Shown: one piece after another, positions 3,762 to 60,837 of the stretch
Layout of the letters: each line of letters begins with the position of its first letter
How positions within the stretch are numbered: position 1 is the stretch's first letter
Source of the DNA: Bilabrum cf. latius
Lineage: Eukaryota
Direction: 5' to 3'
Assembly (NCBI GenBank): GCA_965178125.1
Contig: OZ237767.1
Coordinates: 372,001-436,000, forward strand
Length of the DNA stretch: 64,000 bases
Program-made: the position numbers and the translations under genes
Notes under the pieces: generated by a model
The model's database searches: none
Told to the model about the DNA's origin: nothing
Seen by the model: only the letters and a program-made list of their open reading frames with translations

Positions 3762-5738
3762 ATGATCCGCCAGGCTTCATGCGCGCAGCGAGTATCAAGA
3801 ACATTCAAATCTTTGAGCCTAAGGACGATCTCTGCATCTGCATCGTCCTTGTACGCATACAGAGCGGCGGCAGGCACTGCGGGATCAATCGAAGCCGGAA
3901 GCATGAAAGCGGTAGAATGCAAGGGAGCTGACGGCACTATTGAGGTGTTATTTGTGCGAACCAAGACGGGCAAACTGTTCGGAGTTGAACCAAAGTGCCC
4001 GCACTACGGAGCACCTTTGGTGAGCGGAGTCGTGGCTGACGGGACCCCAACCTATGGTGTCAAGCCGAGTGCCAGCGTAATCTGCCCATGGCACTTGGCC
4101 GAGTTCGACTTGGAATCAGGTGCGAGCCTTGGCGGTCTGGCACTACGCGGCCTGCAGACCTACTCGGTCAACGAGGCCCCTGACGGATCCATCAAGGTGC
4201 AGCCGAAACCGAGCAACGCCGACGAGGCAAAGCCGCTGCCAGGCGCTTCCCAGTTTTTGCTTCGCGGCGGATTGCAAGACATCGACGGGGAATCTGTCGC
4301 CGCCGGTCTCCTATCCAAGGTGGTTGTGGTGGGCGCCGGCGCGGCGGGCATGGCCGCTGTGCAGGAGATGAGGGAGACTGGCTACAGGGGCCAGATCGTC
4401 GTGGTATCCCAGGAGAGGCACTTGCCCTACGACCGGACGAAGCTGAGCAAGGGCGTCATGCCAGCATCGGACGAGGACATGGCCGCGCTCACTCTTTACG
4501 ATTCCGAGTGGTTCGAGGAGCACCGAGTGACGCTGCTCCTCAACACGACCGCGACGGACTGCGACATGCATGAACATTCATTCATGCAGGGCGGCACTCT
4601 AAAGCTCTCAAGCAGCAGCAGCAGCAGCAGCAGCAGCGCCCCCACGGAAGGGAGCCTCGAGTTCGAGCACGCCGTGTTTGCGACCGGTTGCATCCCGAAC
4701 CGGTTGCCATAGTCATTGGTTCCGCCAGAGCGCGGCGCCGCCGTGCTCCGATCCGCCGACGACGCCATGGCCATCCGGAAGTCTTTGGACAGCGAGGACA
4801 CCAGAAAGGTGGTCATAGTGGGGACCTCGTTCATCGGCATGGAGATGGCCAAAGCCGTAAGCGAGAGGCTGGGCAAACCCGGACCGGAGGGGCTGGATGC
4901 GCTGACCGTGGTCGGGATGGAAGACGGGGTGTTCGCGAACCTTCTCCCGCCCCCGGCCAGGGAGCCGATCGAGAAGGCCGCGAGAGAGGCCGGGGTGAAG
5001 TTTCACTTCAACGCCTCGGTCGAGGGAACAACGGGCGGGGAGGATGGCCGTGTGCAGAGCGTGCAGGTCAAGGAGGGTGAGAACGGGCCGATCGTTGATG
5101 TGCCCTGTGATTTCCTGATCCTCGCCGTCGGTGGGCAGCCAGCGACCGAGGCACTGGTCGATGCCCTGGCGCACACAAGGTGTGGAATGGACTCGCGGAT
5201 CCTTGTTGACATCGACTCCAGGTGCGTGCCCACCACGGCTGCAGACGCCTCTATTTTCGTCGCGGGGGACATCGTGAGCGCTCCCCGAAGACAGGGGGGC
5301 CGTCGCGATCACATCGAGCACTGGGGGCACGCACAGGCCGAGGGGCGGTGGGTGGGGCGGCAGGTGGTCAGCGCGGCAAGCGGGAAAGACTGGGGCATTG
5401 TCGAGCGGAATGAAAGCATACCGTTTTTCTGGACGGCGGGGTTCGGAGGGAACGTTCGCATGGCGGGTCACGCGAATGAGACGGCGGAGAGGACCATGAG
5501 CACGGATTCGGAGCCGGGCTCCGGGTCCTTTGGCGTGTTTTACCACAGGAACGGGGAGATTCATGCCATGGCCACCCTGGGGAAGGACCCAGCCCCTTCA
5601 GCATTCGCTGCCCTGGCCAAGGTGCGCAAGTTGCCGGGTGCAGAGGCATTCAAGGGCGAGGAGGAGGGAGGTGGTGGCGGTGGTGGTGGGAAGGGACTCG
5701 CGACCACCGACATCGTCGAGGCGCTGAAGAGGGCCTGA
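3762..5738 (+). CDS. Rieske 2Fe-2S domain plus FAD/NAD pyridine nucleotide-disulfide oxidoreductase (AIF3-like); in-frame TAG at 4710
   Basis: CPHYG...CPWH Rieske motifs, the GAGAAG FAD motif, YDRTKLSK, VVIVGTSFIGMEMA, AGDI, IEHW and IPFFWT. The two halves are in frame across one TAG and the gene ends at TGA. Confidence 0.9.
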
Positions 5739-5909: not shown

Positions 5910-8900
5910 ATGCAAGTCCTTGAAGCTATCGTAACGAACTTGCCTGTGCTTTGCATTGCCATGATAGCGTGTGCAGTAGCAAGAACAGAGATACCGTTTC
6001 AGTACGGTTGGCGGTTTCAATTCTGCGACGCGTCGTCCGGCGATCCAAATTGTATGCCGGGACCATATGGCGATGCACCAAGCATATTCGCAAACTATTG
6101 GAACGATTTGGCAGGATTCATTTGCACGTAGGCGGATGGGTCTCCTCTCCTAACCTCTGACAACAGATTTACTGCAGCAGATTGCGCGACCGGTTGCGCG
6201 TACGAACCAAGCTGCTTGGCGTGGCAGGCAAACCCTGGAGTAATTCATTGCGTGTATGCATTCAAAGGGTACAGATGCCGTCCAGACCCGAGCAAGAACG
6301 CAACCGCGTGGACGCACGGCGGATCCAGGACAGAGGAGCAGGCCAAGCGACCGATTCGAACCGACTATCCCTGGGCCAAGGAGAACCTTCCCGAGGCAGA
6401 TACATGGGAGATTGTTGATGCACCACACGATTACTTGATTCGGAACTCCACGTTCACTCACTTTGCCGATCCGTTCCACGCATACCTGCCTCGCAACTCG
6501 ACAGGATGGTACAGAAAACAGTTTGTCTTGCCCGAGGAATGGCTGCCGTCCATTGCAGGGTTTAACAGCACGATATTTATCCGATTCGAAGGCATATTTC
6601 ACCTCTCGTAGATCTGGCTGAACGGGCAGTACCTCGGCCAGCACGGCTCCCAGGAGGGCGGGTACTCGTAGTTCACCGTCCGGCTGGACAACTGCACTGC
6701 ACTGCGGTACGGTGCTTCCTCCTAGCCCAACGTGCTGGCCGTCCGCGTGGATGGATCCTTCGGCTCCGGGCACTGGTACGAAGGAGCCGGCATGTACCGC
6801 GGTGTGCAGCTGGTGAGGGCCCCCCTTGTGCACGTGGTGGAGGGAGGCCTCTTCGCCTCTCCCGAGCTCGATGTGACGAGTGATCAAGGTGTGACGAGTG
6901 CGACAGAAGGTGCAAGAGATAGAGGCACCGTGTCGATTCCAGTGTCCGTTGAGCTGGAGAACCATGGTTTAGAGGTTGCAACCGCTCGCATCGAGGTGCA
7001 ACTCACATCTGTCGATGGGGGTCCTGTGTTGGCTCGAGCGAATGTGACGAGAGTGATCGAGACGGCCGTGAGCTCCCCGCGGTGCATCCGTGACAGTGCT
7101 ACGCATGTGACAAGCGAGGGGGCAACAAGGCCGGGACTTCAGTCTGCATCATCGACCACCGCGCCGCACACGATCACGGCGCTGCTCACTCTCGATGTTG
7201 CGCCCAACGAGCTGGAGGCGTGGTCCGTGCAGCACCCCAGCGGACTGTATCAGGTGACCGCGACAGTGACTGCACTGCGCGGCGGTTCATCGGATCATCG
7301 CGCTCTTCCGACCGAAACATCAGATGCGGGATCATCGGAGATCCTCGCCGATGAGGTGACGGAGGAGGTTGGGTTCAGGACCGTGTCTGCCTCTTTGACG
7401 GAGGGCCTGATCCTGAACGGGGAGGCCTTCAAGCTCAGGGGGTTCTCCCACCACAACTCCTTCACGCAGCTGGGGACAGCCTTGTCCCCCCGCTTCGAGC
7501 TGTACAGGGTGCAGCAGGCCAGGGCCATGGGCGCCAACATCTGGAGGAACTCCCACAACCCCTACCGGCGGGAGCTGTACCAGCTGACCGACAGGATCGG
7601 GATGGTCATGTGGGACGAGCACAGGGACTATGGAGTGTTCGGGCCGTCAAGCAGCGAGGCGCCGCTCGGGGTGCAGGGGTTCAGCTACCTCCCTGGCATG
7701 CACGCCATGGTGAAGAGAGACAGGAACAGGCCTTCCATCGTGATGGCGAGCTTCTGCAACGAGTACGCGTGCGGGTGTGGCAGGAACACGACTGGCATTG
7801 CCTTCAGGAACGTCTCCAAGGCTCTTGCTCCTCACCTGCTCACTGCAGCGAATGGCGACACTGTGGGGCTGGACGTGCAGGGGCACTCGCACCGTACCAA
7901 TAGCACCTTTGCGCAGTTTCATCAGGAACACCCCGGTGTTCCCCAGGTCTTGTCCGAGTGTTGTTCCTGCAAGAGCCAGAGGCTGCCTGCCATCGATCGC
8001 GCGCTGCCTGCCTGCATCCAGAACGAGAACTCGCCAGGCCTGCTTCCCTACGTGCTCGGCTCTCTGGGAGTCTGGACCAGCTTCGATTACTACGGGGAAC
8101 AGCAAACATGGCCCGATGTGAGCAGTCCTTTCGGCCAGTTCGACATCGCAGGGATGCCCAAGCCGCACGCGTTCTGGTACAGGGCCAACTGGCTCCACAA
8201 GCGGCCTAGCACGGACCCGGGCAAGCCGCTGCAGCCTCCCGCCAACTTGACCAGGGTCTTGGATCTGCCCGACCAGCTGCAGCTTCTGGTCGACGCAGGT
8301 CCTCGTAGCGAACCAGCAGCGAACGTTCGTGCTATTAGCACGAGCCCAATCGCCGAGCTCATCACAGACGGAAAGAGCTAGGGCAAGCAGAGCACGCAGG
8401 GATCCTACCCTGACCAGGTCAACATGGTCAGCTGGAGCGTGCGCTTGGGGAACGTTCACCGAGAGAACAATGCGCACCCGGAAGAAGGGCAGTGCGAGTT
8501 CCCTACGAACCTGACGAACGTTCACTGCCTCGGACTCTCGAAGATGCCGGAGCCCTCCAGCCCGGACCAGTGCAGGCTGGGGTGCTGCGCGCTGCCGGGC
8601 TGCACTGTGTGGCAGTGGGCAGCCGACCGAGGGTGCTGGGCCGGCAGCGTGGACACAAAGCAGTGCGGGGCCAGCCGCGGCGTACCATGGGTAGGTGGGG
8701 GGCGAGCGGAGGCCCCTGGTGTGACGATTGCGAACCTGACCGTGCTGGGCCTGGCCGGGGACGGCAGCACCGTGGAGTCCAGGCACACCGTCCTCGCGCC
8801 CTCTGGAAATGACACGCTACTTATGGGTATCACAGACGTCCCCAGCCCCGCCTCGGGGACCGGCACCGCCCTGCTCCTCGATGGGGAGGACACTGCCCTG

Positions 8901-9401
8901 CTCCGGGTCATGCTCGCCGACGGGCAGGGCAACTTGAGGAGCACGGCGGTTGCCAACGTCAGCGCCACGATCGAGTCGGGGCCCGGGCGCGTGCTGGGCG
9001 TGGGCAGCGGAGACCCGGCCTGCAAGTGCCAGCCGGGCAGCGAGTCTTGCGGGACCTACGGCGGGCTGGCGAGGGTGCTGGTGCAGGTCACGGCCGACTG
9101 CGTGACCCCCAGCCGCGCGCTATCCAAGCAGATCGACGTGGACTCGGGGGCCAGGACGCTCATCGCGGGCCAGGGAACAGGGGTCGCGTGCCCCTCGGGG
9201 GGGGCGAACGTCGTGCGGGTGCAGGGGGTGTTGGATCCCTCCACTGTTCCCCAGGGAACAAGTGCTACGGTGGTGACTCGTGTGGTGGTGCCTGTGTCCA
9301 TCGATGTCCAATCCGATGGGGTACTTGCCGTGGCGCGCTCCAGTGGGATGCACGGGCAGGAACAGGATGTGGGGGCGATGATGGACCGGTTCCTCGGGTG
9401 A
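5910..9401 (+). CDS. Secreted glycoside hydrolase family 2 (beta-galactosidase-like) with Cys-rich inserts; in-frame TAG at 6129, 6609, 6669, 6723, 8379
   Basis: Hydrophobic N-terminus, GWYRKQF, FEGIF..S*IWLNG, WYEGAGMYR, RNSHNP, RDRNRPSIVMASFCNE, WTSFDYYGE, FGQFDIAGMPK and GVGSGDP. The frame is continuous to TGA at 9399. Confidence 0.9.
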
Positions 9402-10466: not shown

Positions 10467-10567
10467 TCGGTAGCAAGATACAATTGGCCACGCATTGGAT
10501 GGCTGCAACCCTGGCACTGCCCTCTTATTGCCCCAAAACCCCTTGCACCGTCACCTTCACCTTCTAG

Positions 10568-10737
10568 CACACCCTCACACACTCGTCATGTCCACATCAC
10601 CCCATCGCCTCCTCCAGCACCCTCACACACTCGTCATGTCCAGATCACCCCATCGCCTCCTCCAGCACCCTCACACACTCGTCATGCCCAGATCACCCCA
10701 TCGCCTCCTCCAGCACCCTCACACACTCGTCATGCCC
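10568..10737 (-). repeat. 48-bp tandem repeat (about 3.5 copies) duplicating the last ankyrin helix and stop codon of the adjacent gene
   Basis: The unit translates on the minus strand as GHDECVRVLEEAMG-TGA-S. Confidence 0.9.
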
Positions 10738-12380
10738 CCCCAATCGAGCCGCCTCCAGCGGACCCACCACCCTGGTCCCGCCCGCCCCGTCCTCCATCTC
10801 GCCCTTGATCTCCAGCCCGCCCGCCAGCTTGCCCAGCCTCAGCCTCCTGGCCAGCTCCATGGGCCTGCCCTCAGCTGCAGCTTCGAACACCATGCCTGCG
10901 TCCCTCTCGGCCTCGTGCGACCGCCTGAAGCGGACCATGCAGCTCTTCCGCGCTCTCCACGCTCTGGCTTGGATGATTTCTCGAATCTTCTTTGCGTGCC
11001 CATGCTCGCGCTTGCCATTGACCAGCAGATGCAGGAACCGGTCGGGGTCCCTTTCTGCTTCGGGGAAATCCTTCATCGCCATAGCCGCATTGAATAGCGT
11101 CCGTCGGGCGTCCAACACGCGTGTAGGAGGCTTTGCTTTCATTTTCTTGGTCCGGTTGGTCACTTTGGTGATGAAATCATCGGACACGGTGGCGCCGTGT
11201 GCGACCAGCTGTGCGACCATCGGTAGGCTGTCGTATGGTGAGGTCTCGACTGGAACCTGCGTCAGCGGGGTCCGGTCAGCCTGCAATACTGGTCTAGACA
11301 ACAAGCCATGATGTAGGGACAAAGCTTGGACGCTCGTTTTGATGCCAAGCGATAAACCTGTTTGTTCCATCACCTAAGCCTAGACATCATGGGAGGCCGT
11401 TCTGGCGCCGATGTACTCACCCTGCATCTCCTGTTCAGGTCTGCTCCACGTGCGACCAGCAGTGGTACGACGTCGGATATCATGGAAAGCGCAGCAAAGT
11501 GAGCGGCAGTGAAGCCCATCTGAGCAGTGCAGAGGATGGTCATTGATAAGTAGCATACTTCGCCGCATGCATCGCAGATGACTGCAATGTATTCACAAGA
11601 CGTCTGCTCACGCTGTCAGTCCAGTTCGGATCCAAGCCAGCTGCATTTGGATCCAGAAGTGCACGAACCACTTCCAAATCGCAACGAGCATACCCCGCTG
11701 TGGCCAAAATTAAGCTGTTCCTCCTATTGTTCTACGCCTTTTCTGCCTCTCTAAGCACTGCGCATGCCTCCTTGTGGCCCTGCACCGCAGCCAGCATCAA
11801 CGGAGTTCGCCGCTCGTCCTGCAAAGCGGCGGTCGATGCATAGCATGAACAGGTATCGTCATACGTAATCAAACAATTTCTGCAGACCAGGTTTAACATA
11901 TGCAGTTGGATCGGTAACCCACCCCTCCAACGGGCACGCAAGGCAAGCTGCCCTGGACGAGGACCCGGCAGGTCTAGGCCTAGCCACAGCACGCGGCCAA
12001 ATGGAGTGCCGTGTACGCTTTGCCGATAAACAAAGCAGATTCAGCACCGGCACCATCGCTGAATTCCATTTTAACCAGTCGATTGCACACTCTTGGTAAC
12101 CCGAGAACGGCTGAGAATTCCAGCGTGTTGAGATCCTGCGGCGCATTACACAAAATCTATTACGAGACCGATCGTACTTCATCATTCAATATAAAAATGT
12201 TTATGAGCGTGTCTTTCTAACTCTTCGCCCAATCAGCGGGAGCAGGATCGGCATGAGCCTTTCGGGAATGCACTGCAGTCCGGTTCTGGTAGTATGCGCT
12301 GATTCAATGAGTCGCAACGCAGCAGCGTCGCCCGCCTCTGCATCTCGAAATGTCACTGGAGAAATTCTACTGGCGGACAT
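10693..12380 (-). CDS. Multi-exon ankyrin repeat protein; in-frame TAG at 11980, 11974, 11732
   Basis: Exons translate to YTALHLAACCG*A*TCRVLV, RTPLMLAAVQGHKEACAVL, GFTAAHFAALS...LLVARGADLN and GPLEAARLGGHDECVRVL, separated by GT-AG introns. The start is uncertain. Confidence 0.75.
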
Positions 12381-12475
12381 TTTGGAGGCTGGGCCTGGAC
12401 TGCGCATGGACCCATTATCATTACAGTGCAGTGCATGCCAGTGGAGGCGAGCGCGTTGGTTCATTCTTCCCTCGC

Positions 12476-13655
12476 ATGCTTCAAAATTGTGCCCTATTGG
12501 GTATATTTGCAACTCTTATACTAGAAACACTTCCTGTGCGCAGCATGTGCCCCAACCAATGCTCGTTTCACGGTCGCTGTGATGAGAGAGGCCACTGCAA
12601 CTGCTACACAGCAACAGGGAATTTCGGCGGGCACACGTAGCCACTTTTCCGCGGTGCGGATTGTTCCGAGCCAGTGTGCCCTTTTGGAAGATCGTCAAAT
12701 ACCATAGGGCGTGCGACGCCTGGGGTGATTTCGGCAACCGGCCCGGAGCTCGCAGCGCAAGGGAGTCCAACGTCAACTCCCTTGATTCGAGTGATTACCA
12801 GCATATCTAGGCTAATGCAGCCGGACCCGTACCAGTTCTAGGTTCAAATTTTGACACGAGAGGGTCCACTTGCCGGCACGTTGCGATACAAGGGTTCGTC
12901 GGACTCCAGGTACAGCAAGCAGTACTATTTTGATGGGGCAGCTGGCTTGCTGACTTCGCTCGAGAGCCCGCTAGAGCTGAAGCCGAGAATACGAGGCAGG
13001 CCTCGTTCTGCTGGTATTTTTATCTACTTGGACATCGGGACTGGAACAGGTCTATCTGATTGGGCTGTAGGGGACGTGTACATGTTCAACGTCACGAGCA
13101 ACGCCGGGCTGGACGGTGGCGGTGCAGACGGCAATCACATGCACCAGTTCATAGAATGCAGTGGAAACGGATACTGCGACCGCAATACAGCCCAGTGTGT
13201 TTGCAACCAGGGCTGGGAGGGGCAGGCCTGCAGCCGCGGTGAGTCCTGGCCATTTGCTGGTTGTCTTGAACTCCCACGGCACGTTTCATGCCCCCCATCC
13301 GGATTGCTTCATCTTTCTCAAACTCCGCATCGTTCTCGCAGCAAGCTGTCCGATGGACTGCTCTGGACACGGGGTCTGCCAGACCCTCAAGAGCTTCGCC
13401 GCAGCCTCCGGCGTAGTGTATGGCGCCCACGACGGCTCCACTTGGACGACGTGCAAATGCGACACGGGATTCCACGGGTTTGGCTGCGGGAAACGGACGT
13501 GTCCTTCTGGGCCGGATCCTTTGGAAGGAGGAGAAGGGGCAGAGGTCGGCAGGGAGTGCTCTGGGCGCGGGGCGTGCAATGAGGAGCAGGGGACGTGCGA
13601 ATGCCACCCGGGCTTCACTGGGGCCAGCTGCGAGGTCATGTCGGCCCTGTTTTAA
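12476..13655 (+). CDS. Secreted EGF/tenascin-repeat protein, resembling stramenopile Sig1/mastigoneme-type proteins; TAG at 12638 and 12839; ends at TAA
   Basis: Signal-like N-terminus, CPNQCSFHGRC, ECSGNGYCDRNTAQCVC, CPMDCSGHGVC, CPSGPDPL and ECSGRGACN. One intron at about 13239-13341. Confidence 0.8.
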
Positions 13656-13849
13656 AGCCAGGCTCGAGCGATACAAGCTTCAATGATGGTTCCAGTGACA
13701 CACACTAATCTTGTTCTTTAGTTGATCCATTCGCTCAGTAGATCCATCACCCCACTGTGTCTACTGAGTAGACTGGCTGGCTGAGCCGATCTTACGAATC
13801 CAGGTCTTCCCACACGCCGGTGCTCATGGTCTCAAAACCAAGTAAGTAA

Positions 13850-16800
13850 TTATTGGGATCCATCCAAGCTGAACTTCTTCACCGCGCCCCTTGAAGACAG
13901 CGGCGGGCGGGGCTCCAAGGGTCCTTTCGCTGGCGACCTCGTGTGGCTCCTCGCGTCACTCTGACTGCGCTCTCGGCTCATGGGCGGCAGGTGCACGGGG
14001 ACAGAGGAACTGCCTTGCGACCCATGGGCCGAGGATGCAGACCCTCCGCTGCCGCCAGTGGGCGCTGCTGCAGGGTACCCAGGTGACGCTGCTGCCGCCC
14101 TCGGCACCCTTCCGCCTGCTCTTGCCCCTGCCTGGGTCTGCTACTGCTGCTGCTGCTGCTGCTGCTTCTGCCGCTTCGCCGCACTCGTCACACCAGCCCC
14201 GCCCTGCTTGGCTGCTTCCTTCAGTCGGCCCATCCTCTGCCTCAGGCTCGCCGCCCTCACGGCCCCTCTGAGCAGCCTGGCTCCCCTGCCCGGGCGACTG
14301 CCGGGAGTGCCTCGCCCGCCCAAACCAGCGCTCGTCGCGCCGGAGCCACTACTGGACATGGGCGTGGCGCTGGGCGTGAGCTGGGCCTCGTCGTGGATGG
14401 ACCGCATGTCCAGTCGCGGAGGCGGAGAAAAGGCGCCCAATGTGGGTCCGCTCGGCCGGCTGTCACCACTGGCAGTGACGTCCCGCTCGTCATCATCACC
14501 AGCACCTACCCTCTACCCGCTCGCCAAACGGACATTCCCGCTCGGCGACCGGCCCATTTTTGCCATGAGGAGAGGCCGCCCCGTAGGAGGTTTCGGACTG
14601 TTCCCTGAGAAGGACAGCGAACGTTCGATGGCCCCCGGGCTAGGGTTTGACTTGATCCCCTTTCGCGGGCTCCCCATGGCCCTTGGTGTGAGTCCGGCTG
14701 GCAGCAGGCCTCCTCCCCCTTTGGTATCTTCAGCAGCCAGCGCCGACTCCAACGAAAAGCTCCCGTGTCCGCTCGTGCCGCCTCCCGAAGATCCAGAGAG
14801 CCTGTGCCTGCCCCTGTGCCCCTGTCCTCTTGGACTGGCCTGCGCCGCCAGCATCGCCTCCGGTGTGAGGACGGGCCCATCCTCTGACAGCCGCAGCATG
14901 CTGTTCTCACGCTGCACCATTAGGAGCCTCTTCTGTTTCCTGCCCTCATCGCTGCGTCTCGAGCCCAGCGAGCCCACCGACCTGACCGAGTCCTGTCTCT
15001 TGAACCGCCGAGGAGAGGCTGACTGGCCCCTGGGGAACTGCGGCGAGTCGTTTGGGTCTGAACCGCCCCCAGTCCGCCTGCCGGCAGCCGCACCACCGTG
15101 AGCCCTAGGAGTCATTGCGCCTGCCATCTCCCTCTCATCTAGGGAGTGCCCCGACCGCACGCTCTCACCGCCCCGCATGGAAACATGATGCCTCGGTGAT
15201 ACGAGCAGGCCGGGCCCCGCAGCACCTGCCAGTGGGCCGCCCCACACGGACCCACCACCGCCCGACACGGTTGACGTGCCCTACTGCCTGGGATTCTTCG
15301 CAGGAGACGCGCTGGCGGCCTGCACCAGCTGCGGCATCACGGTGGAGGCCGCGCCCAGCCGTTCGCAAGCCAGCCTGGACTGGTTCTCAAGAAAGTTGTT
15401 CACCGGATGCGAGTCTCTCAGTTTATCAAGGCCCTGGGGCTTGTCGATGAGCGTCCTGGACGTGAAGGCGTCAATCTCCTGCGCTGCCTGCGTGGTGTAT
15501 TCGATCCATTGCTCCCGGCGCTGCTCCAGCACGAGGTTGACCCAGCCCAGCTCAGACACACCCACGTCCTCGTCTTCGTCCTCCACCCCGGGATCGGTCT
15601 CCGCCTCGGAGACTGACACAGACCCAGTCACGCTGGCCGATGACGACAGAGCGTCAGAGGACCGCTGGTGCCTGCCACTGCCGCCCAGCCGACCGCTCGT
15701 AGAACGGGCGGGCGAAGCTGCGTGTGCATGCGCATGCCCCTATGCAATGGCGATTCCTTGCTGCTTTACCGCCGCGTGCTTCTTCAGCGTGCCCTTGTGC
15801 ATGTCGTCGTCATGCACGGTCAGCTCGGCAGCTCGCTTGAACATGTCCCGCGCATGCTGCGGAATATCCTGCATCTTGGGCCTCTCGCCCCCTGTGGGGT
15901 CCACGGACGGTGCAAGGGCCGGGCAGTAGCACGCGACCAGCCCCGCAAAGTCCTGCAGACCGAGCCTGACATGCGACGCGCGCACCCCCTTCAAACCTCC
16001 GGGCACGCTGAAACCACCAGGACCCGAACGGCCACTACCGCCATGCCCACCCGCAGCAGCAGCAGCAGCCCCAGCTGTGCCACTTGCACCTGCCTTTGCA
16101 GCCTCCGCGTCTCTCTTTGCCTGCTTTGCTGACACGGGCGGCCCTCTCAGCGACCCCCTGCCCGAGGCAATCCCAACCGCCCTGCGATAGAGCAGGCGCA
16201 GCCGCCTGATGTCCCGCAGGTGCTCGCCGAACCAAAGCCCGAGCAGCGTCTCGAGAAGACTGTCTAGATCCCATCGCCGCCTCCGGAGCTGAGTCTTACC
16301 CCGGACAGACGGGTCGGTCCTGAACTCGGTCAGTCCGGAGACTCCCAGCCCCTCGGCGTCTCCTGAGGAGCCCGACGATGTGGTGGTCCCAGTCGCCTGG
16401 CGCTTGAACGGGAACGGCCCGTGCTGCTGCTGCTGCTGCTGTGGAGTGCTTGCGCCAGGGGTGCTGGCCTGTCCTGGCGTGCCTGCACCGCCAATCGCCG
16501 AATGGCCGGGCGTGTGCGCCCCTGCCGCGGATTCTGCATCTCCCTGCGTCCCTTGCTCGAGCAGCCCTTTTAGCCTCTGAAGGAAGGGCTTCTGCACCGG
16601 GCTGGCGAAAAGAGAGGACGTGATCGAGTTAATCATCCCGAATGATAGGGTGACCTGACGCCGGCGACTCGTGGCTGTCGACCTCGAGCTGGCTGCCTTG
16701 GACTTGCGGGCTTTGGCCGCCCCAGAACCAGGTGTACCGTCGCCTGCTGCTGCACCGGTCACCTCGTCGACGGTGTGGTCCATCCCGGTCCCCATCTTCT

Positions 16801-19800
16801 CCTTCAGACCAGCTTCACTGGTGGTCAGCGTCCCGACACCGCCAGAGACCGCTTCGAGCGTCCGCTCCATAGCCCAGAGAAACCAATCCAGCGCCATTTC
16901 AAAGGAGCTAGAGTGCAATGCGACACCGGGGTCGCCCAGCGGCACAGCACGCCTCCCTAGCACCTTCTTGGCCTGCAGCTTTGCCAGCGCCTTGCTCCCG
17001 CATAGTCTGTCCAGAGTGGACGACGGCAGCGCAAGGAGCACGGCGTACTTGAGGGCCGCATTCACCGATACCGCAGGCGCGCTGGAGCCGTGCGCGTACC
17101 TCCTCGTCAGGAGCGCAAAGACGGTGGGGGACTCTCGGAGTGACCTTGGCAGCTGGTCCAGCATCTTGTTCTTGGATAGGCGCCTTGTCTCTGCCGTGAT
17201 GGCCTCCTGGAGATCGTCGGCTCGTATCATGACGCCGGAGAAAGATCTGGGGGTCCAGTCGCAGCCATCGACATCCGAGAGGAAGCCGAGGAGGCGGCAC
17301 CGAGGCGACCTCGGGGCAAACATGGTGACTGCTTCCTGGATGAAGGCGTGCTGCTTGTTGGCCAGCTTGCGTAGACCGTACTGACGAGTGAGGTAGGATT
17401 TCACGTAGGACTTGAAAGGTCGCCTGTGCTTGCCATCGCGATCGTCGCTCCGGTCCGACTTGAGCTTGCCCGCGAACATGGCGGCCACCTGCACGTGCAC
17501 CTCCGTCAATGTCTCTGCCTTTGCCAGTTTGACCAGCATGGCGTCGTTACGGCGGCGCTTCCGCCTGCGTCGTGTTGTGGTGACGTCAGCTGCGGTCAGC
17601 TCCGAGTCAATGGATCCGACGTCATCGTCCAGTGCAGACTCCGGCGTGCCTTCAGGCTTGCTGCCCTCAGCTGCGGTGAGCACATCACGGGCGCTCGTGC
17701 TCGTCCTTCGCTCGAGCCTCGCCTTGCTTGACGGGGTTGTAAGAGACCTAGCACTCTGCCACTTTTTCTCTGGAGACACGGGGGTAGTCGGGGGAATCTT
17801 CACGACTGGGGTGGGCTGGGCCTCCTCATGCACGGACCGTCGCCGCTTCCAGATGCCCCCGCTGGGCTAAGGCATGCGAGTCGTTCCTTTCAGAAGCCCT
17901 TGCGCTGGAGTGCCCGGACGGGGCGGGCCATTCGTGCCAGCCATCGCGTTCTGGTTTGCGCTCCTCACGTCAATGGCCGTGGGGATGCCGAGGGCCCGCA
18001 TCCGCATCCTCGTGCGGGTGCGTACTCTCCTGCCGAAAGACTGATACCTGCCGGTCTCGTCGAGCACGACGCCAGGCACAGAGGGACTTGAGGGGCTGCG
18101 AGGCTGAACCAAGGCCGTGTTGCTAGAATCGGTCGCGCTAGGCCAGTTGTTCCCTGCTCCGATCGCCCTCTTGGGGCCACCCTTCGGACTGACGAGCATC
18201 TCTGGAGTGGCATCGAAGAGAGAAGAGACCGCCTTGGACACTGTGCCACGCCCGTGCCGCTGCTCCATGCTTTGCGCAGCACCGGATCTAGAGGACCCCG
18301 AGGAGTCCTCATGTTCCCTGCTTCCTGCTGCCAGCGCGCTAGCTGCAGCAGATGTGGCAGACAGAGCCATGCTGTGGCCCGAGCGGCTGGTTGATTTGGG
18401 CGCGACCGTGGCGGGCGCCTCGCTGCCTCCCGCGTTGCTGGACCCGTCCACGCTCGTAGCAGTGTTGATGGCAGGCAGCATTTTCTTGCGAGTGGCCTGG
18501 TGCTGGCCCTCCAGCGAAGTGGGGCTGCCGGCAGTGGGGCTACTGTCAACGCCGTCACCATCCCCGGCCGCGTCGTCCCGAGCGGCCGTACCTGGCCTGG
18601 TGGAGGATTGTGCGGATCCGATACCATCCCTACCGTGCAGGATGGCTTCGCCCGCCGAGTAGTCAGTCCTCAAATCGCCCTCCTTGTCCTCGCTGGAAGC
18701 CGTTGTGGCCAGCCCGACGACACCGCTTCCTATCTCGTCGGACGTGCGAAGGCTTCCTCCATGGGATCCGCGTGGGGATGATGATGACGAGGGTGCATTC
18801 ACCTCGGCATCTGTGTTAGTGTGCGGGTGATCGTCCAGCGACAGCGATAGAGACCTCTCGAATGGCTCGCCATCCTCAGTGGTGCCGCCATCGCTGGTGC
18901 CATCCCCATCCCCATCCCCATCCCCATCCCCATCCCCATCCCCATCCCCATCCCGATCCCCATCCCCATCCCCATCCCCTTCGCTGCCCTCTGCCAGAGT
19001 CTGCACCACCCCGCCCGGCTGCTTCCGCATCACTGCCATCTCCGCGCTGGTCACTGCCCTTGCGGAACCTCCAAGCTGCTGCAATGCGCGGCGCCGTAGC
19101 CCGTCCTGGCCATCGATTGAGGCGATCAGGCTGCTGGAGCGCTGCTTGGGCGGCGGCGGCGCTGCCTTGGAGCCGGGGGCAGACTGCCCGCCCGGTGCAA
19201 CCGGGAGTGTCGTCTCCGTGATCCGTGACAGGCTCGGAGCAATGGAGCGAACCTTCCTTACTGGATGGAACCTCCCAGTCAGCTGCACGGAGGCGAAGGG
19301 TGACGTGAACCGGGTCCTGATGGGCTCCTCCGCCTCCGGGGCGTCTGACTCCATACGGTCATCTCGACCAGATTCATTCTGTCCTTCGCTGTTGTCTGCA
19401 GCCATATCTTCTCGGTCTTTGGCACTAGCGTCTGCAACTCCCCTTGCGACCGTGTCAGCACCAGCAGAGCCGCCAGCAGAGCCGCCATCCTCGGCGACAT
19501 GTTTGGATGCAATGTCCTCGTCCTCCTCGTCCTCTCTGAGCTACTCCATGGCATGTGCGATCGCACCCTCGTCCGCTGATACCTCCATATCGAGGCTCTG
19601 ACCCAGTCCCCCATCGCTAGGCATTTCACCGCTGCCGTCCTCGGTCGCTGCCGATGATGATACACCGTAGTAGCCCGCCCCGCTTCCTTGCGACACCGAC
19701 ACGTCGTAGGACCGGCCCCCGCTCGCTGGGTCTGCCTCCAGATCAAATGACAGGGAGCTGGATCCGGAATCGGAATCACCGCTCCCGTCTGATGACGATG

Positions 19801-22800
19801 CGCCGCCCTCGCTTTCTCCTTCCTCCTCCTCTGATGGCGACGGGGCTCGTGCACCGCCCAGCGCATTTGAGGAGCCAAGTGTCAGAGCTCGCCGGGACGA
19901 AGCGATGCCTCCGCTTCGAATCGGTGCAAGCAGGTCAGACGGCATCGCAATGCCTGCAACAGGCGCGTCTTTCTCCATAGGACCAGCACCCTGACTCTGG
20001 CCCTTGTCGACAAGTCGCGCTGGTGGCTCCGATGGCTATGACCCGCTCTCTGCCGAGCTAATCGAGATCCTGGCACTAGCCGCAAGCGAACCCCGCCTGG
20101 ACTCCGCATCGGCTGCATTGCGGCGGCCCATCCCGATATCATCATCGTCTCCTTCGATCGATGCAAGTCGGGCCCTGGACTCGACCGACCTGGACTGCGA
20201 CCCAACGCTGCGCAGGCTGCCAGAGGCATCTCCCAACCTGCCTCGTGGCGAGCTGAAGGCCACGCTGGGGTCCGTGCCTGGGATGGCACTGCTGGCCACG
20301 GACCCAGAACGGCTGTGTGAAGCAGTAGATCCTGCAAGTCCCCTGCTGCGCTGAAGCGATGCTGTGCCAACTGCTGGCTTGGACTTGGGACCTGTGCTGT
20401 AGGACCCTGCCTCGCTGTGCTCCAGTACTTCTGCAGCAATGGCCTCGTGCCAACGGCTTTTCCCGTGGTCGTGGTCGCTGTCGTTCAGTGCCTTGGGAGG
20501 CTGCTTCCAGGTCGAGTGTTCGCTCCCGACGGATGAACCGTCCTCTCCCCCAACCGGTCTCGCGCTCGCCATGACCCTGCCAAGCACAGGCATCGCCCCC
20601 GCTTCGCTCCGCGTCTCCATCTCATCATCCTCCTTAAGCTCTTCCAGCCGGCCGGGCACAGCCAATTTGAACGAGCCCTTGCTCTCGCCCGCTAGCGCTT
20701 CCTTGCCATCCTTGTGCTCCTCGCCTCGCCTGGTCTTGCCCGGCGGCGACTGCAGCGCGCGACGCTTGCCCGCGGGACCGGCCGAGGCGCCAAGCGGGGA
20801 AGTGCTTCCAGAGACTGCGTTCTTTATCTCTTTCTGCACCATTTCCTGCGCCATTGCTTCTGCCCGCAGCTGCATTTCGGGCGTGATTGGCAGGCCTCGC
20901 CTCGCTGCCTCCTGAAACATCTCGTCCTGCAGCTGCGCCCTAGCAAGACGCAGCCTAGTGGATCGGAAGACGGGACCGTAACTGCCCATCTGTGGGAGCG
21001 TGGTGGCGGCGGGTTGCGCAACCGCGTCGGCCGCAAACACGATGTTCTTGTCGGGGCGGATCAGCCTAGGATCCTTTGCGCTTGATGCGGTGCTTGCAGA
21101 CGCGGCTACGGGAGGCCGCTGCGGAGTCACTGCGTCGTAGGGGGCCTGCACCACAGACTACAGCGCGGCAGGGAACAAGTGCAGGGGCGGTTGTACCAGC
21201 ACGCTGCCAGGGGGCAGGGCCAGAGCGGATGCTAGCTGCCCTTGCAGGATGGGGTCTCCTCTCCTGGCACGGCTGCCGCTCGCTTGGTTCATGCCACCGG
21301 CGAAGGAACTAGTTCGGCGGCTCCCGGAGCCCCCGCTGCTCCTGATGCCTTGGTTGTCGGGCAGATACACGAGCACTCGCACGTCTGCACCGGCGATTAC
21401 GTGTCTCCCAGTCGCGTCCCGCTGGCTCCCTCCCATTGCCTGCAGCCGAGCCAGCAAGGCATGCGATCCAACAGAGGCGTGGCTCACCCGCCTCTGGTCC
21501 TCACCGGGAGGGTCCAGGCCTCGGCGCTGCCCCAACGCAGCCTCCGATCCCACGGGAGAATTCCTTCCAGGGATGGAAGGCATTCTCCCAAAAGATGCAA
21601 GGGATCGCTGGCTGCCCGCCTCGCCGGCCTTTCGCAGGGCGACACTGTGCGGGCCCCTGCCATTGACATCACTGATCCCTTTGCTTGCCATCGCGTCCCC
21701 GCTGACGGCCACAGGAACCAGCCACCAGGTGCCGTTTGCTGGCAGCTCCGGTTCGCAGGAACCGGCAGACGACTGCCTCGCCCTCTGCCTCGTCATCGTG
21801 CCCAGCTCCTCTCCCGATCCGCCTGTAAACACCGCCCTCTCGCACTGCACCGTTGCGTCCCTCGTACGCGCCTGCCGGGCGGCCTTGCGTGCTTGCTGCA
21901 GCTGCTCTCGCAGAGACGCGATCTATTCCCGCATTCGAGCGACCCTCGCCGCGTCGATCTGCGCCTGTTTGGCCACCCCCGCGTGTTCCTTCTCGAACTC
22001 TGCCAGCTCGCTGAGGATGCGGGTGTGCAGCTCCTCCGACGACACCTGCGACTCGAGCTGGTCTCTGAGCCTATCTCTCTCGCCCTGGCGGTTGCGCACG
22101 CTAAGGAAACCACCCACACCCTGTGTGTTCTCCTGCGCTCCGCTGCCATCGGACCGCACGCTGGCAGCTGCAACGGCCCGCACTCCGGTGGTCGGCCCTT
22201 TACTCTTCTTGTCCGACTTATCTGTCTTGATGGTGGTCACAGAGGTCCTGCGGCCTTGCCTCGGATTACTCGCGGCTTTGTCTTCGGGCAGCGCGTCCAG
22301 CTTGCCGCTTCCGGCGGTACCATCTTCGCGGCTCTAAAAAGGCCGTCTTGACCTCGCCTTGGGAGTGGTCGGGTTTGAGCTTGACGTGCCCCCTGGCCTC
22401 GGAGACTCGGGTGTGCCGCTCCCCTCCTCGCCCGAATCAAGCACGTTGACCGACCTTGAGGACGCCTTACGACCTGCACGGAGCGCATTGGCCGCTGCTG
22501 ACTATGAATGAGACGAGGGAGGAGGAGAAGCCACCGTGCCTCGCGCGAAAGAGTCGTCGGGCGCCAGCAGGCCGTTCTTCTGCTTGTACTGTATGCGGCG
22601 TATGACGAACTCCGAGAGGGCCTTTCGTACTACGGGATACGTGGCGATTTCCGGCATCACTCGCAGCTGAAACAGCCGCTGATCATCTGCCGGCAGGGCC
22701 TGATACCCCGCCACAAGAGCCTCGATCTGGTCCACTGCCCTGGGCATGCGTCTCAGCAGGCTCACCGTTTCTCGAGTGGCGTCGACACCAGTGAGTCGCC

Positions 22801-24907
22801 GGGCCAGTTCCGCCTGCCTCCTCTTCTCGTGCGCGATCGCGAGCGTTGCTGCCCGCAGAGCAGCCCTCCGCTCTCGCAGCAGGTTGGCTGCTCCCCGCAT
22901 GGTGACCCGCCAGGCCAAGAAGGGCCAGTTCACGTTTGACCTGGGCTTGGGCCGCACGGCGAAGTCGCCGTGGTGAAAGAGGTCCTGCAGGGCCGGGCCG
23001 AGTCCCCGCGTGACCTTGTTCCCTAGGCCACCCGGGCCCCCACCAGTTGCCCGCAGCAATGACGCACTCCTCGATTTGCCGCTGTGAACAGTGCCGGCGA
23101 TGGTGCTGTGCGCCGTGCGCGGGGAACGGCCAGAAGATCCAGCCCCGACCGCAGCGGAAGTGGAGGAAGCCGGTCCTAGCGTGGCCAAAGTGGCCGGGGC
23201 GATCAGCTCCGCTCTGGATCGCATCTCCCTCTGAGTCACGGCCGGATCCGTGGAGCCGGTCGGATCCACGCGCCCGTCCGCAGCAGCAGCCGACTCAGCC
23301 TATGCCAGCGACTGGCCCAGAGTAGCTCCCGTGGGCTGGAATAGCTTGGCGATCTCGGGAGGTAGTGGGGCCTGTTTCGAGTAAACCTGGTCAAACTGGC
23401 GAAAAAGCAAGCGCGCGATCACACTCGCAGCCGCCGCCACCGGTGCAGCGGCCGTGCCGCCTTTCTTGGCGTACAGGTGCAGCACGGCAAGCGCTACGCA
23501 CGCTAGCAGTCGTGGGCTGGCGGACTCGGGAGTGGAGATGCACATCGACTGCACCATGACTGCGGCCTGCCGAAGCCTTTGCATGCAAAATATGCTCGGA
23601 CTGTTGAAGCTGTCCATTCCCCGCGCGAAGTGCCTTAGAAACCGCCCGCAGTCATCTTCAGTGTGCCTTCCACGTTCTAGCCCTGTCGCATACGCGCCTT
23701 CGTACCCTGATGCATCGTCCTCATCGTCCTCCCCCCCTCCACGTCTCACTTCGCTTTGCTTGGAGGACGACCCTGTGAACGTGCCGCCGTCAGGGTGCAT
23801 TGCACTGCTGTGAGTCGGCGACACGCCGAACGCGTCGCTCCGGAGAGAGGCCACGGACGGCTGCGGCTCAACATAGAGCGGTTGTTCCCTGGTTCCACCC
23901 TCCCCCCGCTTGCCCTCGAGCTCTCCTTCGAATGGCATCCCCACAAGGTCCCCTGTCCCCATGCCGGGGGTTTCAGGGGCCAGCGGTCGCTTGCGGGGGG
24001 GTGGTCGCGGGGGGGCGTCCGACCTGGCATGGTCCGATCTCTGATCCGATCCTTTGTGTTCCCCGCTGGTCTCCCTTGCTGCTGGAGGAGCCTATATGCG
24101 GAAAGACACGCCAGCAGTTGACCTCGACCTGGTACTGGCAGTGGTGGCTGCCAATGGGGCCGCGCCGCCACGCAGCACTGCTTCTACCCGATGGCTACCG
24201 GCAGCAGAGGGAGAGAAGGAGGACGATGAGGAGGAGAAAGGGTTGTTCATGGAGGCCCCTGAAGCCGCCGTACTGGCGGGTGATGCGAGTACCCGTGGCT
24301 TGGCCACGTGAACGCGGTGTGACGAGTGAGTATGTCCCGCTGGTGGCACCACCCCTCCATGGGCAGCAGACGGAGAGGACGAGGATCCTACTGCGGAACC
24401 AGATCCGGATAGTCCGGCCGCGGCGCGGCGCCGCGTAGCCAATGGTACCGGAGCCACAGGGCCCCTGGGAGCATTCGGCCCGTTTTCGGGCCATAGCCTC
24501 CGCTGCGATGATGATGATGAGTGCGAGCTTGGTTGCATGTTGTTGTTGCTACCTGACACACCGCTGCCAGATGCCGGCAGCTACTGGCCAGATTGACTGC
24601 CACTCATCGGAGAAACTGGAATTTTCATTCCACTGTGAGAATGCGCATTCGATGCGTCGTGTTCGGTGGGCCGCACCCATTTCTCAGAGTTGGGACCGGC
24701 CAGCACTGCGCTGCCGATGTTGCTGGCCATGCTGCTGCTGCTTCCAAGAGCATGATGTCCTCCTTGTGAGCGATCCAATCTAGATGCCATCAATTCGCTA
24801 CTCCCTGCACCAGTCCGGGCCCTCGTGTCTCTAGAGGAGCGAGCAGAGAGAGGGAGGCTCGGTGCGACGTGGGCTGGTCCGCCCCGCATATCAGACGAAT
24901 CGCGCAT
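13850..24907 (-). CDS. Giant uncharacterised, largely low-complexity protein (about 3685 aa) with 14 in-frame TAG codons; ends at TAA
   Basis: The ORF-track fragments from 13850 to 24907 lie in one frame. I translated the gaps between them and found only TAG, never TAA or TGA. There is a helical island KLKSDRSDD...YLTRQYGLRKLA and a coiled-coil segment. Confidence 0.8.
18900..18979. repeat. (CCCCAT)n hexamer microsatellite encoding Gly-Asp repeats
   Basis: Directly visible; reads DGDGDG in the minus-strand giant ORF. Confidence 0.95.
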
Positions 24908-26143
24908 TCTTTGACGGAGACCGTGACGCTAAAACCGATGCTGGCCCATGATCCTGCCACGGGGCGTTTTGCTGCCACCCATACCCAAAATGCGGTGCGA
25001 TCGGTCTCCGGTTCCTGCGAGATGGAAGGCCAAACAAGTAGCACAGGTACTATCACAGTTAAAGCTCGCGGCAATCGCATGCTCACTGGGCCGATAGGGG
25101 TGTCTCACTGGTAGTATGCATGGGATGTTGTGCACTGCTGGCATTCGTTCCTGAACTCAGGCCATTAAACACGGACTTCAAGGGAGACTGCGATGCATAT
25201 TGAATGGCCGGAAAAAAATGCCCACGATGTTTCGCAGCGTCATAGTTTTCAGCACAATCAAAGATCTAGACCTTACATCTGTACCATAACCCGTGGGAGC
25301 GGCACGTCCGGGTTGCATGGCTGCTCAAGCAGCTATTTCTGTCTCGTTCCGTTGGATGATGCCGGCGGTCGCAACCACTACCGGGTTCTGCGCTCGCTCC
25401 CCTCGCTCCTATTACTCTTCAAGTGGACCTTCGGAAATCACCACGCCTCAGCACCTGATATACGCAGTCTGTACTTAATGTCGTGGCCCAGGGTGTTCCG
25501 CCAACTTGTTTTAGTCCTGAAAATCTGGGAGTCAAGACGCTGCCTGGTGCGACCACCACCCATCCATACGCAGTCGCGGGTTGGCAGAATATGCTATCTG
25601 TAATCGGCTGCGATGTAGCACTAGGAGAGAATCGCTGCCTTATATGTATGCCACTTTGCTCCAGTGGACCTGCTGGTGATGCTGCGGCTCTTGATCCGAT
25701 TACTAAGCACCCTCAGGCTGGGCGTGTCGGGGCCAATGCATCAGAACCCCAGCCGGGCGGACCGCGTGGTTTCGAACATCCATTCCACGATAAGTAGGCC
25801 CCGCGGGCAGCTGAAGTGGTCAGACACTTTCGCAGCATACCACGCTGAGCCGCTGAGCAGTGCCACTGCTGCGGCTCCATCGCTGCCAGTGGCAGCACTC
25901 GACTACCACCCGGTGGCAGGAAGTGCAAGAACTCTAGCTGGGCAGCCCATGCTACACCGTGCAGCCCACTAGCCCACTAGTCCATCGCCGGATGGCCAGC
26001 TCGGCAGCATGATGCATCGCATGCATGAATGATCAACACTACCTGCCTGCCATTTAGCCACATGATTGGCCGCCAGGGGCAGGTGCACTGCACGATAGGA
26101 TTCCTAGGCCAGCTGACGGCACCACTCATTCGTCAATTCCAGA

Positions 26144-33505: not shown

Positions 33506-36500
33506 ATGTCCTCGGTGAATGTATGGGCAGTAGACGAACCCGTGAAGTCTTTTGTTCTTGTGCATTCAAAGCAGCCGCTTGGTCAGCTACACGATGCGCT
33601 GACTGGTGAGTAGACAGGTTATGCTCAAAGCGGCCAACGAGGTCTCGGCAGCCTGCCAGCTGGCAAGGTGATAATAAAACATGCTTGTGACACATGCACA
33701 CGGTATATAATATTAGTTGCTTCTATTCACAGGTGTTTATGGGAAAGAGCCTGCCGGTCTTGCAGTAGGATCGACGCACGGTACCGGCTCAGCGCAGTCC
33801 GCGACGCACGCCCTTGCCCCGCTGGATGCAATGCGTAACCCACAGCAACATTTTGCGACAGCATGCAAGTCAGCCCTTGGGCCTGCCTTTGAGGCCTCTG
33901 TTGAGCTGGAGACAGCTGAGCGCCGGGGATCCAGCTCGGATACCACCTAGATCGTCTCACCGCCACCAGCCAGCGGGGCCAAAGAAATTGCCACACTCAC
34001 AGGAGTAGCATTCGCAGAACCCGATGCCCTGTTGAATGCCCTGCGCCGAGTTTCGAACGCAAGAGGCGAGGTAAACCGGCAGGATTTTGTGCGAGCATGC
34101 GGAGGCCTCATTCGGACCATGCCGCCGAGGCCGGGACCTCCGCTGTCAAAGGAGCAGTCCGAATCGCTGTTAGGGAGGCTGTTTGCGGCACTGGACACGA
34201 ACGGCGACGGTAGCCTGGACGAGAATGAGCTCGTGGCTGGGCTGCTGCTCGCCTGCCACGGCTCCACCCCAGCTCGCCTCGGCGCCATGTTCCGGCTATT
34301 CGACAGGAACGGGGATGGGCTCCTGTCAAAGGTGAGACTGTGTGAAATTGATTGCGCATGCATAGTAGGCCACTCGCTGCTGGTGTGGCTCCGGCATGCT
34401 GCCGCTGCCGCATCACCAGCGATGGGGCATTGTGCTGGTTACCCGACAGAACTGCATGTCCCTACTTGCTACTTGCTGCGCTCGTGTCGACGACCGCTGC
34501 TGCACCGCACGCTGCCTCGTCACCTATCCTTGCTACGCACAACACGCAGGCAGAATTGGTCTCAAGTCTCGAGCCAGCGTGCAGGCTGCTGCTCCAGGAG
34601 CGCCCGGACATTGCTGCCTCGGCGGGTGCGGTCGCAGTCCCGCAGCACATGCGCCCGGCAGCCATTGCGCGGGCGCTTGCCGCTCAGGCAATGGACGCTG
34701 CAGACGCCAACAATGACGGGGTGCTGTCCTTTGATGAGTTTAGACAGTGGACAAACCGGTCCCTGCCCGGGAGCGGGACAGCTGCCGCGCTGTCGAGCGA
34801 TTTCGAGCAGGGACTGGCTGACCTCGTGCGCGGGCTGGGCGGCATGGCGGCCGCGGCCCATGGCCAGCCCGATGGTGAAGATGAAGATTCCAATGCAGCG
34901 GCAGGGGCTGTCGGAAGTAGTGCCGGGGCTGGCCCGGCATCTCATGACCCTTAGCTGCCTGCTTACGTCGTGAATGCGCGCGGAGAGAACGAGGCGCGCG
35001 AGATGGCGCTAGACGTGCATGCGCCAAGGCCTGCGGGAAGCTCCTGGCGCAGCGGGATTCGGAGGCTGGCTCTACTGACTGGGCTATACACGATGGACCC
35101 GACCGAGGCGATGCATTTCTTCAGCGGATACGAGGAAGAGGGAGGAGAGGCCGGCGGCGAGGGGGGCAGCGGTGCAGGAGCAAGCGAGAGCAAGAGCAAC
35201 GGCGGGGGCAGCAGCAAAGGGGGTAACGGAGAGGGGGAGGATGCTGGTGGGCTCAGCGAGGACGGTTTCGTGCTTGCCATCGAAGCCGCAGCGGCGAGAG
35301 CGCGGGCGCAGGCAGAGCACGTCGGTGCGGAGGCTCCCCAGGAGCTTCGCGTCCATCCCTCCGTGCGGCAGGGGGTCAGCAGGAGGCTGTTTGCCGCCCT
35401 GGATGCCGACAGGAACGGTCTGGTGGATAAGAAAGAACTTGTTGCGGGTCTTGGGGTACTTTCCGGTGTGGGGAGAGGCGCACTGAGTGCAAGCGTTGCG
35501 TTCCAGGCATATGACACCGGCCGTGAAGGGGGCGTGCTTCACTGGCAGCTCGTGCGAATGCTGACTGTGACGAATCGGTTGGCCGCTGTGGCAGACCCAG
35601 AGATCATCCACTGGCTGGGTGACACGCCGGAGGGGGCGGCGAGACAGGCTGCTGACTCCGCCTTCGACTCGGCCGGGGTGTCTGTAGACGGGGGGCGGCT
35701 GTCGCAGGAAGCGTTTGAAGCTTGGTTTGGTGCCGCTGGAGCTGCGGACGCTCAGGTAGCGGCAGCGGCCACCGCTGGCTATCCTGGCGATCGGCGCGAA
35801 CAATAGCAACCGCAGCAGCAGCAGCAGCAGCAGGAGGCCATGGAGCCGGACAGGACCGCTGGGGGAGACTTCCAGGAGCTGAGCACAGCGGACTGGGACG
35901 CGAGAGTGAGTGCAGCGCATGGTGGTGGCAGTGCAGCTGGGCCCGGGATCTCGCTGGATGCCGGCGTGGTGATAGGCACTGTGCCTGAGGGAGCCAGCGA
36001 GCGTGGCAGGCGCGATTCTGCCGACGCGGACGATGCCCCAGGCCCGGCCATCTCACGCAACTTTTCCCACGCGTCTGCGGAGTCTGTGCCCATGGAAGAT
36101 GAAGAGGAGCAGAACGAGGACGGGGCATTTGGTGGCCATACGCCGGGCCTGCCCTCAGCCCCGCCGCAGCCGCAGCCGCAGCCGCAGCCGCATCCCACGA
36201 CAGGCGAACTGGAGGGCGAGCCAACTGCCTCCCGGCTCAGGGACCGCCTCCAGCGCCTGCAGAGCCAGGAATCGGTGGCGTCCAGACAGGGCGCCGAGCT
36301 GGCCAAAGGAGACGACGCTGCGCTGGCCGTTCCAAGCTTGCTGAATGAGTCCTCCACGGGGTCGGACGCAGACGCGACCGAGGGTGGCCTCACACGGCTC
36401 AGGCAGGAGGCCGGTCTGGAGCCGGCCATTGCTGCATCCGTCATACGGTGCGTACTGAGCAAAGCACTCGCGGGGCCCGCGCTCATGCAAACAAGCGCCT

Positions 36501-56576: not shown

Positions 56577-56918
56577 ATGAGTCGAATTCATTTCAGTCTG
56601 TCTAGAGTTGCCGATGTAGCCCACAGAGTAGTGAATGGCTCCCTGGTGTTCGGGACGCTTGCGATGATTGGCGGGCTCGGGTACGGCGCCTACAGCCTGT
56701 ACGTGCTTCGCCCAGCGTATCTGAATTCAATCCGCAATGAACTAGAAGAGAAAGCGGCGGCCAAGCATGGAATTTCTGTTGAGGAGGTTAGATAGCGAGT
56801 GGCTGACGGGGACGTTGCGTTGGCAACCGAGACGGACATGATTTAGGAGGCCAAACGAAGATAGGCAGCGCAGATGGAAGCTGCAGAGAATGGGAGTAGA
56901 AGTGATTCTAGACAATGA
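56577..56918 (+). CDS. Small single-pass membrane protein, possibly COX14-like; 3 in-frame TAG
   Basis: VADVAHRVVNGSLVFGTLAMIGGLGYGAY, then a charged helix EEVR*RVA...MI*EAKRR*AAQ. Ends at TGA. Confidence 0.55.

Positions 56919-57200: not shown

Positions 57201-60837
<3,637 letters not shown>

Follow-up and report, generated by a model that had tools for sequence, protein, structure and literature searches.

Gene content of the window

The window, i.e., the whole stretch of 64,000 nucleotides analyzed here, is eukaryotic and intron-bearing, with a GC content of 61%. Pfam searches with 40 frames recovered the PIG-P, Rieske/FAD oxidoreductase, GH2, MORN, ankyrin, EGF, UBC, acyltransferase, kinase-Arm, EF-hand, DUF829, MCM, and CapZ-alpha families, and a scan of 114 of the 187 short frames also matched COX14. 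The features on which the analysis draws are:

3762..5738, plus strand: Rieske/FAD oxidoreductase (AIF-like); TAG at 4710, inside the Pfam domain
5910..9401, plus strand: glycoside hydrolase family 2 (GH2); five TAGs, at 6129, 6609, 6669, 6723, and 8379
10693..12407, minus strand: ankyrin-repeat gene; contigs of the RNA-type runs show joints at four GT-AG introns; TAGs at 11982, 11976, and 11734
12350..13655, plus strand: EGF-repeat gene, ending in TAA; one intron seen in RNA-run contigs; a spliced contig carries its TAGs at 12638 and 12839
13850..25144, minus strand: mostly low-complexity protein of 3,764 residues, family unassigned; 15 in-frame TAGs; ends in TAA
14132..14170, minus strand: CAG run interrupted by a single in-frame TAG (14143-14141) and translated as QKQQQQQQQQQTQ
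34352-40534, plus strand: EF-hand protein frame with CAA TAG CAA CCG (CAG)7 at 35801..35833; six TAGs
52475-49134, minus strand: frame with CAA TTG CAA TAG TAG at 52008..52022; 14 TAGs, no Pfam match
56577..56918, plus strand: COX14-like gene (cytochrome c oxidase assembly); three TAGs in the tail
57201..60837, minus strand: MCM3, five exons with GT-AG introns, 994 residues; one TAG (codon 68); ends in TGA
61197..62303, plus strand: F-actin capping protein alpha (CapZ-alpha), main exon; TAGs at 61518 and 61713

The long frame (25144-13850) gave no Pfam match above the cut-off. The protein it encodes is low-complexity apart from a globular-looking stretch at 16870-17540 (about residues 2540-2760), for which the Atlas leads (0.84-0.86, all below 0.9) point to unnamed eukaryotic clusters. 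CapZ-alpha continues for about 115 residues past its Pfam domain (61955-62303), closing in lysine-rich repeats that we take to resemble actin-binding WH2 motifs. A tandem array at 10570-10783 holds 3.4 copies of the last 48 bases of the ankyrin-repeat gene, TGA included; very high contig depth and many variants at 10700-10880 suggest that this unit is dispersed in the genome. A further dispersed motif, around GTGTGACGAGTG, has a core, GTGACGAG, that occurs 23 times on both strands (e.g., sites at 1584, 2601, 6873, 6891, 14184, 38114, 38282, 38450, 59283, and 59309), and TGACGAGT has 27 occurrences in the window against 4 expected. The motif lies in exons, where it often spells GVTS, a string common in Cafeteria proteins, as well as in introns, with one copy a short way upstream of the CAG run. 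Its role may be that of a chromatin or protein-binding signal acting across the genome.

TAG as a sense codon and the codons that stop

TAG is a sense codon throughout the window. Comparing frame lengths across codes, a check free of the circularity of picking gene models, we counted 6 frames of at least 1,500 nt under the standard code. Reading TAG as sense raised this number to 15 (longest 3,769 codons), and reading TAA as sense gave 7. With TGA, the commonest off-frame stop in the window, as sense there were 32 (longest 1,132 codons), and with both TAG and TAA there were 18, the frames obtained with TAG alone being hardly lengthened. The frame at 25144-13850 has no internal TAA or TGA and is far longer than chance, with the other five frames there holding 30-58 TGAs each.

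We further built 19 gene models by hand, choosing frames free of TAA and TGA, so that the zero counts in the following are partly by construction. Across their 16,070 codons TAG occurs 83 times, alongside 493 CAG and 106 CAA, and would thus make up 12% of the Gln codons; in-frame TAA occurs 0 times, against about 18 expected had it followed the CAA/CAG ratio. At least one TAG is present in 18 of the 19 models, including MCM3 and CapZ-alpha, and all are complete without an internal UGA or UAA. UGA terminates 17 of them, and in MCM3 it stands at the position where homologues end. The remaining two end in TAA, neither end being matched to the C-terminus of a homologue. With no TAA inside the models and frames barely longer when it is read through, UAA is not a sense codon here.

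Sequencing runs provided a second line of evidence. Seven runs from three studies, dating from 2025, cover 4000-13900, and four were compared over 3700-18800. Joints in the contigs of three of them (X5, X6, and X7, from two studies) match five GT-AG introns. Because of these spliced joints we took the three as RNA, although no run is recorded as such and X5 is flagged as probably DNA. Of the 17 TAGs that the models place in 3700-18800, 16 are found on listed contigs of these runs without a single mismatch, contigs being assemblies that hide minor variants. Five of the 16 are on spliced contigs (the three of the ankyrin-repeat gene and the two of the EGF-repeat gene), and four are on a single 4,535-nt contig of X5 that covers 14181-18679 of the long gene. 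All five TAGs of the GH2 gene are among the 16, although that at 6609 has just 30 flanking letters on one side of its contig. Of the codon changes listed for GH2 downstream of its TAGs, 9 of 17 are synonymous. At 6609, contigs of X4 and X6 begin or end right beside the T of the TAG, as does one of X4 at the TAG at 6723. These ends may mark CAG/TAG alleles, but a paralogue junction would explain them too, and we did not count them as evidence.

The seventeenth TAG lies in a repeat that the contig comparison skips and is thus outside the RNA evidence. It is the one to which the original prediction had drawn attention, arguing that a TAG embedded in a poly-glutamine CAG run behaves as a synonym of CAG. 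The codon is indeed there and in frame, at 14143-14141 of the minus strand (codon 3668 of the long frame), in a run reading CAG AAG (CAG)7 TAG CAG ACC CAG. The sequence had been given correctly for 14135..14170, although its last CAG falls just beyond 14135, so that the run extends over 14170-14132. Two similar contexts had been named. CAA TTG CAA TAG TAG is present and in frame on the minus strand at 52022-52008, as is CAA TAG CAA CCG in the EF-hand gene, where it is followed by seven rather than six CAGs (35801-35833). Besides TAG, the runs at these sites are also broken by AAG, CCG, and ACC.

The claim that this context is evidence for glutamine needing no homology did not hold up. A TAG is one C-to-T change away from CAG and would arise in a CAG run regardless, so its presence there is uninformative about its meaning. 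The enrichment of TAG beside CAG/CAA codons that had been proposed as a genome-wide check was not significant when looked for in the window. For 76 TAGs in 17 coding stretches, Gln neighbors numbered 10 at ±1 (6.4 expected, p=0.115) and 26 at ±3 (19.6 expected, p=0.088), and with the four TAGs of the three chosen sites masked any excess was gone (p=0.72 and 0.83, respectively). A test on one window has too little data to count against the code; it just lends the code no support. The other proposed check, for CAG/TAG polymorphisms, found no such swap among 40 of the 129 difference rows of the contig comparison. The idea that transcripts ending at these TAGs would speak against a sense reading is ill-posed, a stop codon not being where a transcript ends. 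The inference of glutamine itself is nevertheless supported, by homology and RNA rather than by the CAG-run argument.

The residue read at TAG

Alignments with close relatives point to glutamine. Both TAGs of CapZ-alpha (61518 and 61713) face Q in P0002, which, at 68% identity, is the only match for this protein among 6,985 candidates, and the second also faces Q in 3 of 3 PDB alignments shown. In GH2, where three TAGs are within the Pfam sugar-binding domain, the one at 6723 sits at a Q of P0205, before the same PN, BLAST having placed a one-residue gap there. Single TAG columns are mostly poorly conserved (e.g., GH2 6129 is mostly G, 6669 mostly S/G, and MCM3 codon 68 mostly E/T), and CAG columns are as variable in the GH2 homologues. 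We scored residues jointly over six TAG columns (five from GH2, one from MCM3): Q came first with 4.4, followed by T and E with 1.2, and L, Y, and W were outside the top 8. A small bias toward Q is built in, as TAG was translated as Q (3 of 200 residues) when the GH2 homologues were collected. In controls with six random columns for each of seven codons, the right residue was recovered in 75-100% of 300 draws.

Fragmented proteins of a relative at about 80% supply a further indication. The database fragments P0205 and P0277 break off immediately ahead of columns where 83 of 96 and 24 of 44 homologues, respectively, have Q, and one of the two begins three residues past a TAG of the window. Such breaks are what would be expected of a standard-code gene caller meeting a Gln-coding stop, and suggest a relative with the same code; the fragments are known as proteins, and the stops cutting them are deduced rather than read as DNA. 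P0277 and P0002 had no match among viral contigs, nor P0277 among prokaryote genomes. The scan of 114 of the 187 short frames, with matches to UBC, EGF, ankyrin, and COX14, gave no further conserved TAG site.

Several other approaches were set aside. Reading distant GH2 homologues column by column was uninformative, and in the AIF-like PDB alignments the TAG faces G in 2 of 3 shown, or a shifted loop. A naive-Bayes context classifier assigned only 7 of 56 control codons correctly, with CAA ranked 18th, and its result for TAG (R first, Q fifth) was discarded. Likewise, in a block correlation TAG tracked AGT best, followed by CAA and CCA equally, which reflects regions of low GC3 and not Gln.

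Taken together, these data make it very probable that TAG encodes glutamine, with nuclear UAG reassigned from stop to sense and UGA (main) and UAA (minor) kept as stops. If so, the TAG in the CAG run would in all likelihood be a synonymous C-to-T change like any other. On the model of Iotanema and the ciliates (PMC5304391 and PMC11687900, excerpts), UAG would be read by a tRNA-Gln with the anticodon CUA, one change away from a duplicated tRNA-Gln(CUG) and incapable of pairing with UAA, and its recognition by eRF1 would be weakened. The window itself yielded no tRNA or Rfam match.

We weighed three other readings against this. The first is that UAG is dual, coding for glutamine inside genes and terminating near some gene ends, as in context-dependent codes. 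TAG shows a slight excess in the last 50 codons of the models (8 of 83, against 25 of 599 for CAG/CAA; p=0.049), this being one of four cut-offs tried, with p=0.11-0.16 for the other three. Also, in the UBC2/RAD6-like gene a TAG directly follows the acidic tail, 30 codons before the TGA (27188-27280). On the other hand, every model has a TGA or TAA in frame downstream, the tails of COX14 and of the acyltransferase GPAT read on past their TAGs as plausible helices, and MCM3 closes with its TGA at the homologous end. Furthermore, the dual-codon organisms described in the excerpted text of PMC5304391 have reassigned all three stops, unlike the situation here. We consider a dual UAG unlikely.

Still less probable, to the point of being very doubtful, is that TAG stands for another residue (Glu, Leu, Tyr, or Trp), or that TAA also encodes glutamine (table 6). 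Glutamate does share second place in the profile score, and in the GAG control columns the runner-up is Q; but three TAG sites face Q in close relatives, one of them in PDB chains too, and leucine, tyrosine, and tryptophan score poorly. As for TAA, its role as a stop is seen just twice, at model ends that no homologue anchors; against its being a glutamine codon stands its absence in frame where about 18 would be expected. Finally, a standard code with the TAGs overcome by RNA editing (to Trp through A-to-I, or to CAG through U-to-C), by readthrough favored by flanking Gln codons, or appearing through pseudogenes or assembly errors is scarcely credible: Gln-flanked stops are passed at 2-8% in yeast (PMC13192750, excerpt) and partial editing would be hidden in contigs that drop minor variants, but TAG is unchanged on the contigs of three RNA-type runs from two studies, spliced ones included, Gln codons are only 10 of its 152 immediate neighbors, the base following it is distributed like that following CAG (as would not be expected of a readthrough signal), fifteen TAGs in a single frame could not each be passed at a few percent, and MCM3 and CapZ-alpha are otherwise intact, with no TAA, TGA, or frameshift alongside the TAGs.

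Source lineage and relation to known codes

The window has no 18S; we placed its source through MCM3. In an IQ-TREE analysis of 44 rows, the window protein forms a clade of six with P0006, P0010, P0015, P0017, and P0019 (support 100/99), apart from fungi and from six metagenome loci with in-frame TAA and TAG; the rows of this tree are a hand-picked subset of 120 proteins and 80 metagenome loci. FastTree (68 rows) made this clade sister (0.903) to a set containing Hondaea fermentalgiana, a position that IQ-TREE does not resolve. P0017 is, judging by its accession prefix, presumably the EukProt entry of Halocafeteria seosinensis. From this one gene and the label we assume for P0017, the source is likely a bicosoecid-like stramenopile and probably a small bacteria-eating flagellate, a single-celled eukaryote. 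The COX14-like gene points to aerobic mitochondria and speaks against an anaerobic fornicate as the source. Neither P0017 (40 Gln) nor P0019 (34 Gln) is interrupted, which would be unlikely at 12% TAG use (p=0.006 and 0.013, respectively), and both probably use the standard code. With less certainty, the code change may have had an independent origin confined to a part of the bicosoecid-like clade.

Of the 80 metagenome MCM3 loci, of which 32 entered FastTree and 18 IQ-TREE, none is close to the window MCM3. Several in-frame stops are found in L027, L028, L033, L035-L038, L046, L047, L049, L051, L053, and L056, with both TAA and TAG in all except L053, whose aligned part contains six TAGs but not a single TAA; L034 and L076 contain TAA alone, and five TGAs are present in L048. 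The six stop-bearing loci placed in the tree constitute one clade, with the window outside it.

Among bicosoecids, Cafeteria has about 70% GC and 1.7-1.9 introns per gene (PMC6972860, excerpt), with which the high GC and few introns of the window fit. In the same excerpt a non-standard code is mentioned for Cafeteria/Halocafeteria in the mitochondrion only (UGA as Trp), unlike the nuclear change in the window, and the excerpted Cafileria paper has a mitochondrial code with UAG as a stop. A literature search for a nuclear code change in bicosoecids, Bigyra, or Cafeteria found none, a report outside its coverage, which takes in few subscription papers and bioRxiv supplements, being possible; apart from the Cafileria paper it matched one on eustigmatophyte mitochondrial genomes. 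Titles and opening lines of abstracts from broader searches likewise showed no nuclear case in stramenopiles, and the word stramenopile does not occur in PMC11687900. The UAG-only Gln code itself is already known, from Iotanema and three ciliates; what is new here is probably the host lineage. We would give an even chance to the broader proposition that Stramenopiles here show their first nuclear code change, with UAG alone reassigned to Gln independently in a GC-rich sub-lineage of bicosoecids whose main stop is UGA, and in at least one relative (about 80% protein identity) as well, but not in more distant members of the clade.

Were this the case, a further supergroup would gain an independent origin of the code, in an aerobic flagellate that is rich in GC, has public DNA and RNA runs, and has standard-code relatives for comparison. 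Standard-code gene callers are probably already cutting the genes of this lineage into pieces, which is what P0205 and P0277 look like, leaving its proteins under-represented in databases. Such a flagellate would also be a candidate for the kind of host used by giant viruses that read TAG as Gln; the excerpted text of PMC13524828, on alternative codes in giant viruses, names no such host.

Several known codes share TAG as Gln with the window. Table 15 of crAss-like and other phages likewise retains TAA and TGA as stops (PMC9523058, excerpt), but the window belongs to a eukaryotic nuclear genome with spliceosomal GT-AG introns. Table 6, in which both UAR codons are Gln, is used by many ciliates, hexamitid diplomonads, oxymonads, ulvophytes, and Amoeboaphelidium (PMC5304391, excerpt; the table number is also given in PMC13524828, excerpt), and differs in that TAA is never in frame in the window models. 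The window MCM3 does not group with the metagenome loci carrying in-frame TAA and TAG. Condylostoma and Blastocrithidia, with all three stops reassigned, are set apart by the lack of in-frame UGA and UAA in the 19 models. A further parallel is the nuclear code of the fornicate Iotanema spirale, with UAG as Gln, UAA and UGA as stops, and a predicted tRNA-Gln(CUA); however, Iotanema is an anaerobic metamonad with UAA as the primary stop (PMC5304391, excerpt), in contrast to the 61% GC, COX14-like gene, and 17 of 19 TGA ends of the window. The same UAG-only table is found in the ciliates Hartmannula sinica, Trochilia petrani, and Protocruzia tuzeti, where, as here, most genes contain TAG but it accounts for a minor part of the Gln codons; its share of Gln codons is 18.5% in Hartmannula and 31.8% in Trochilia (PMC11687900, excerpt), against 12% in the window. 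UAA is the preferred stop in the taxa discussed in that excerpt, unlike the mainly TGA-terminated genes of the window, whose dominance of TGA would thus test whether an AT-rich, UAA-dominated genome is needed for such a code change.
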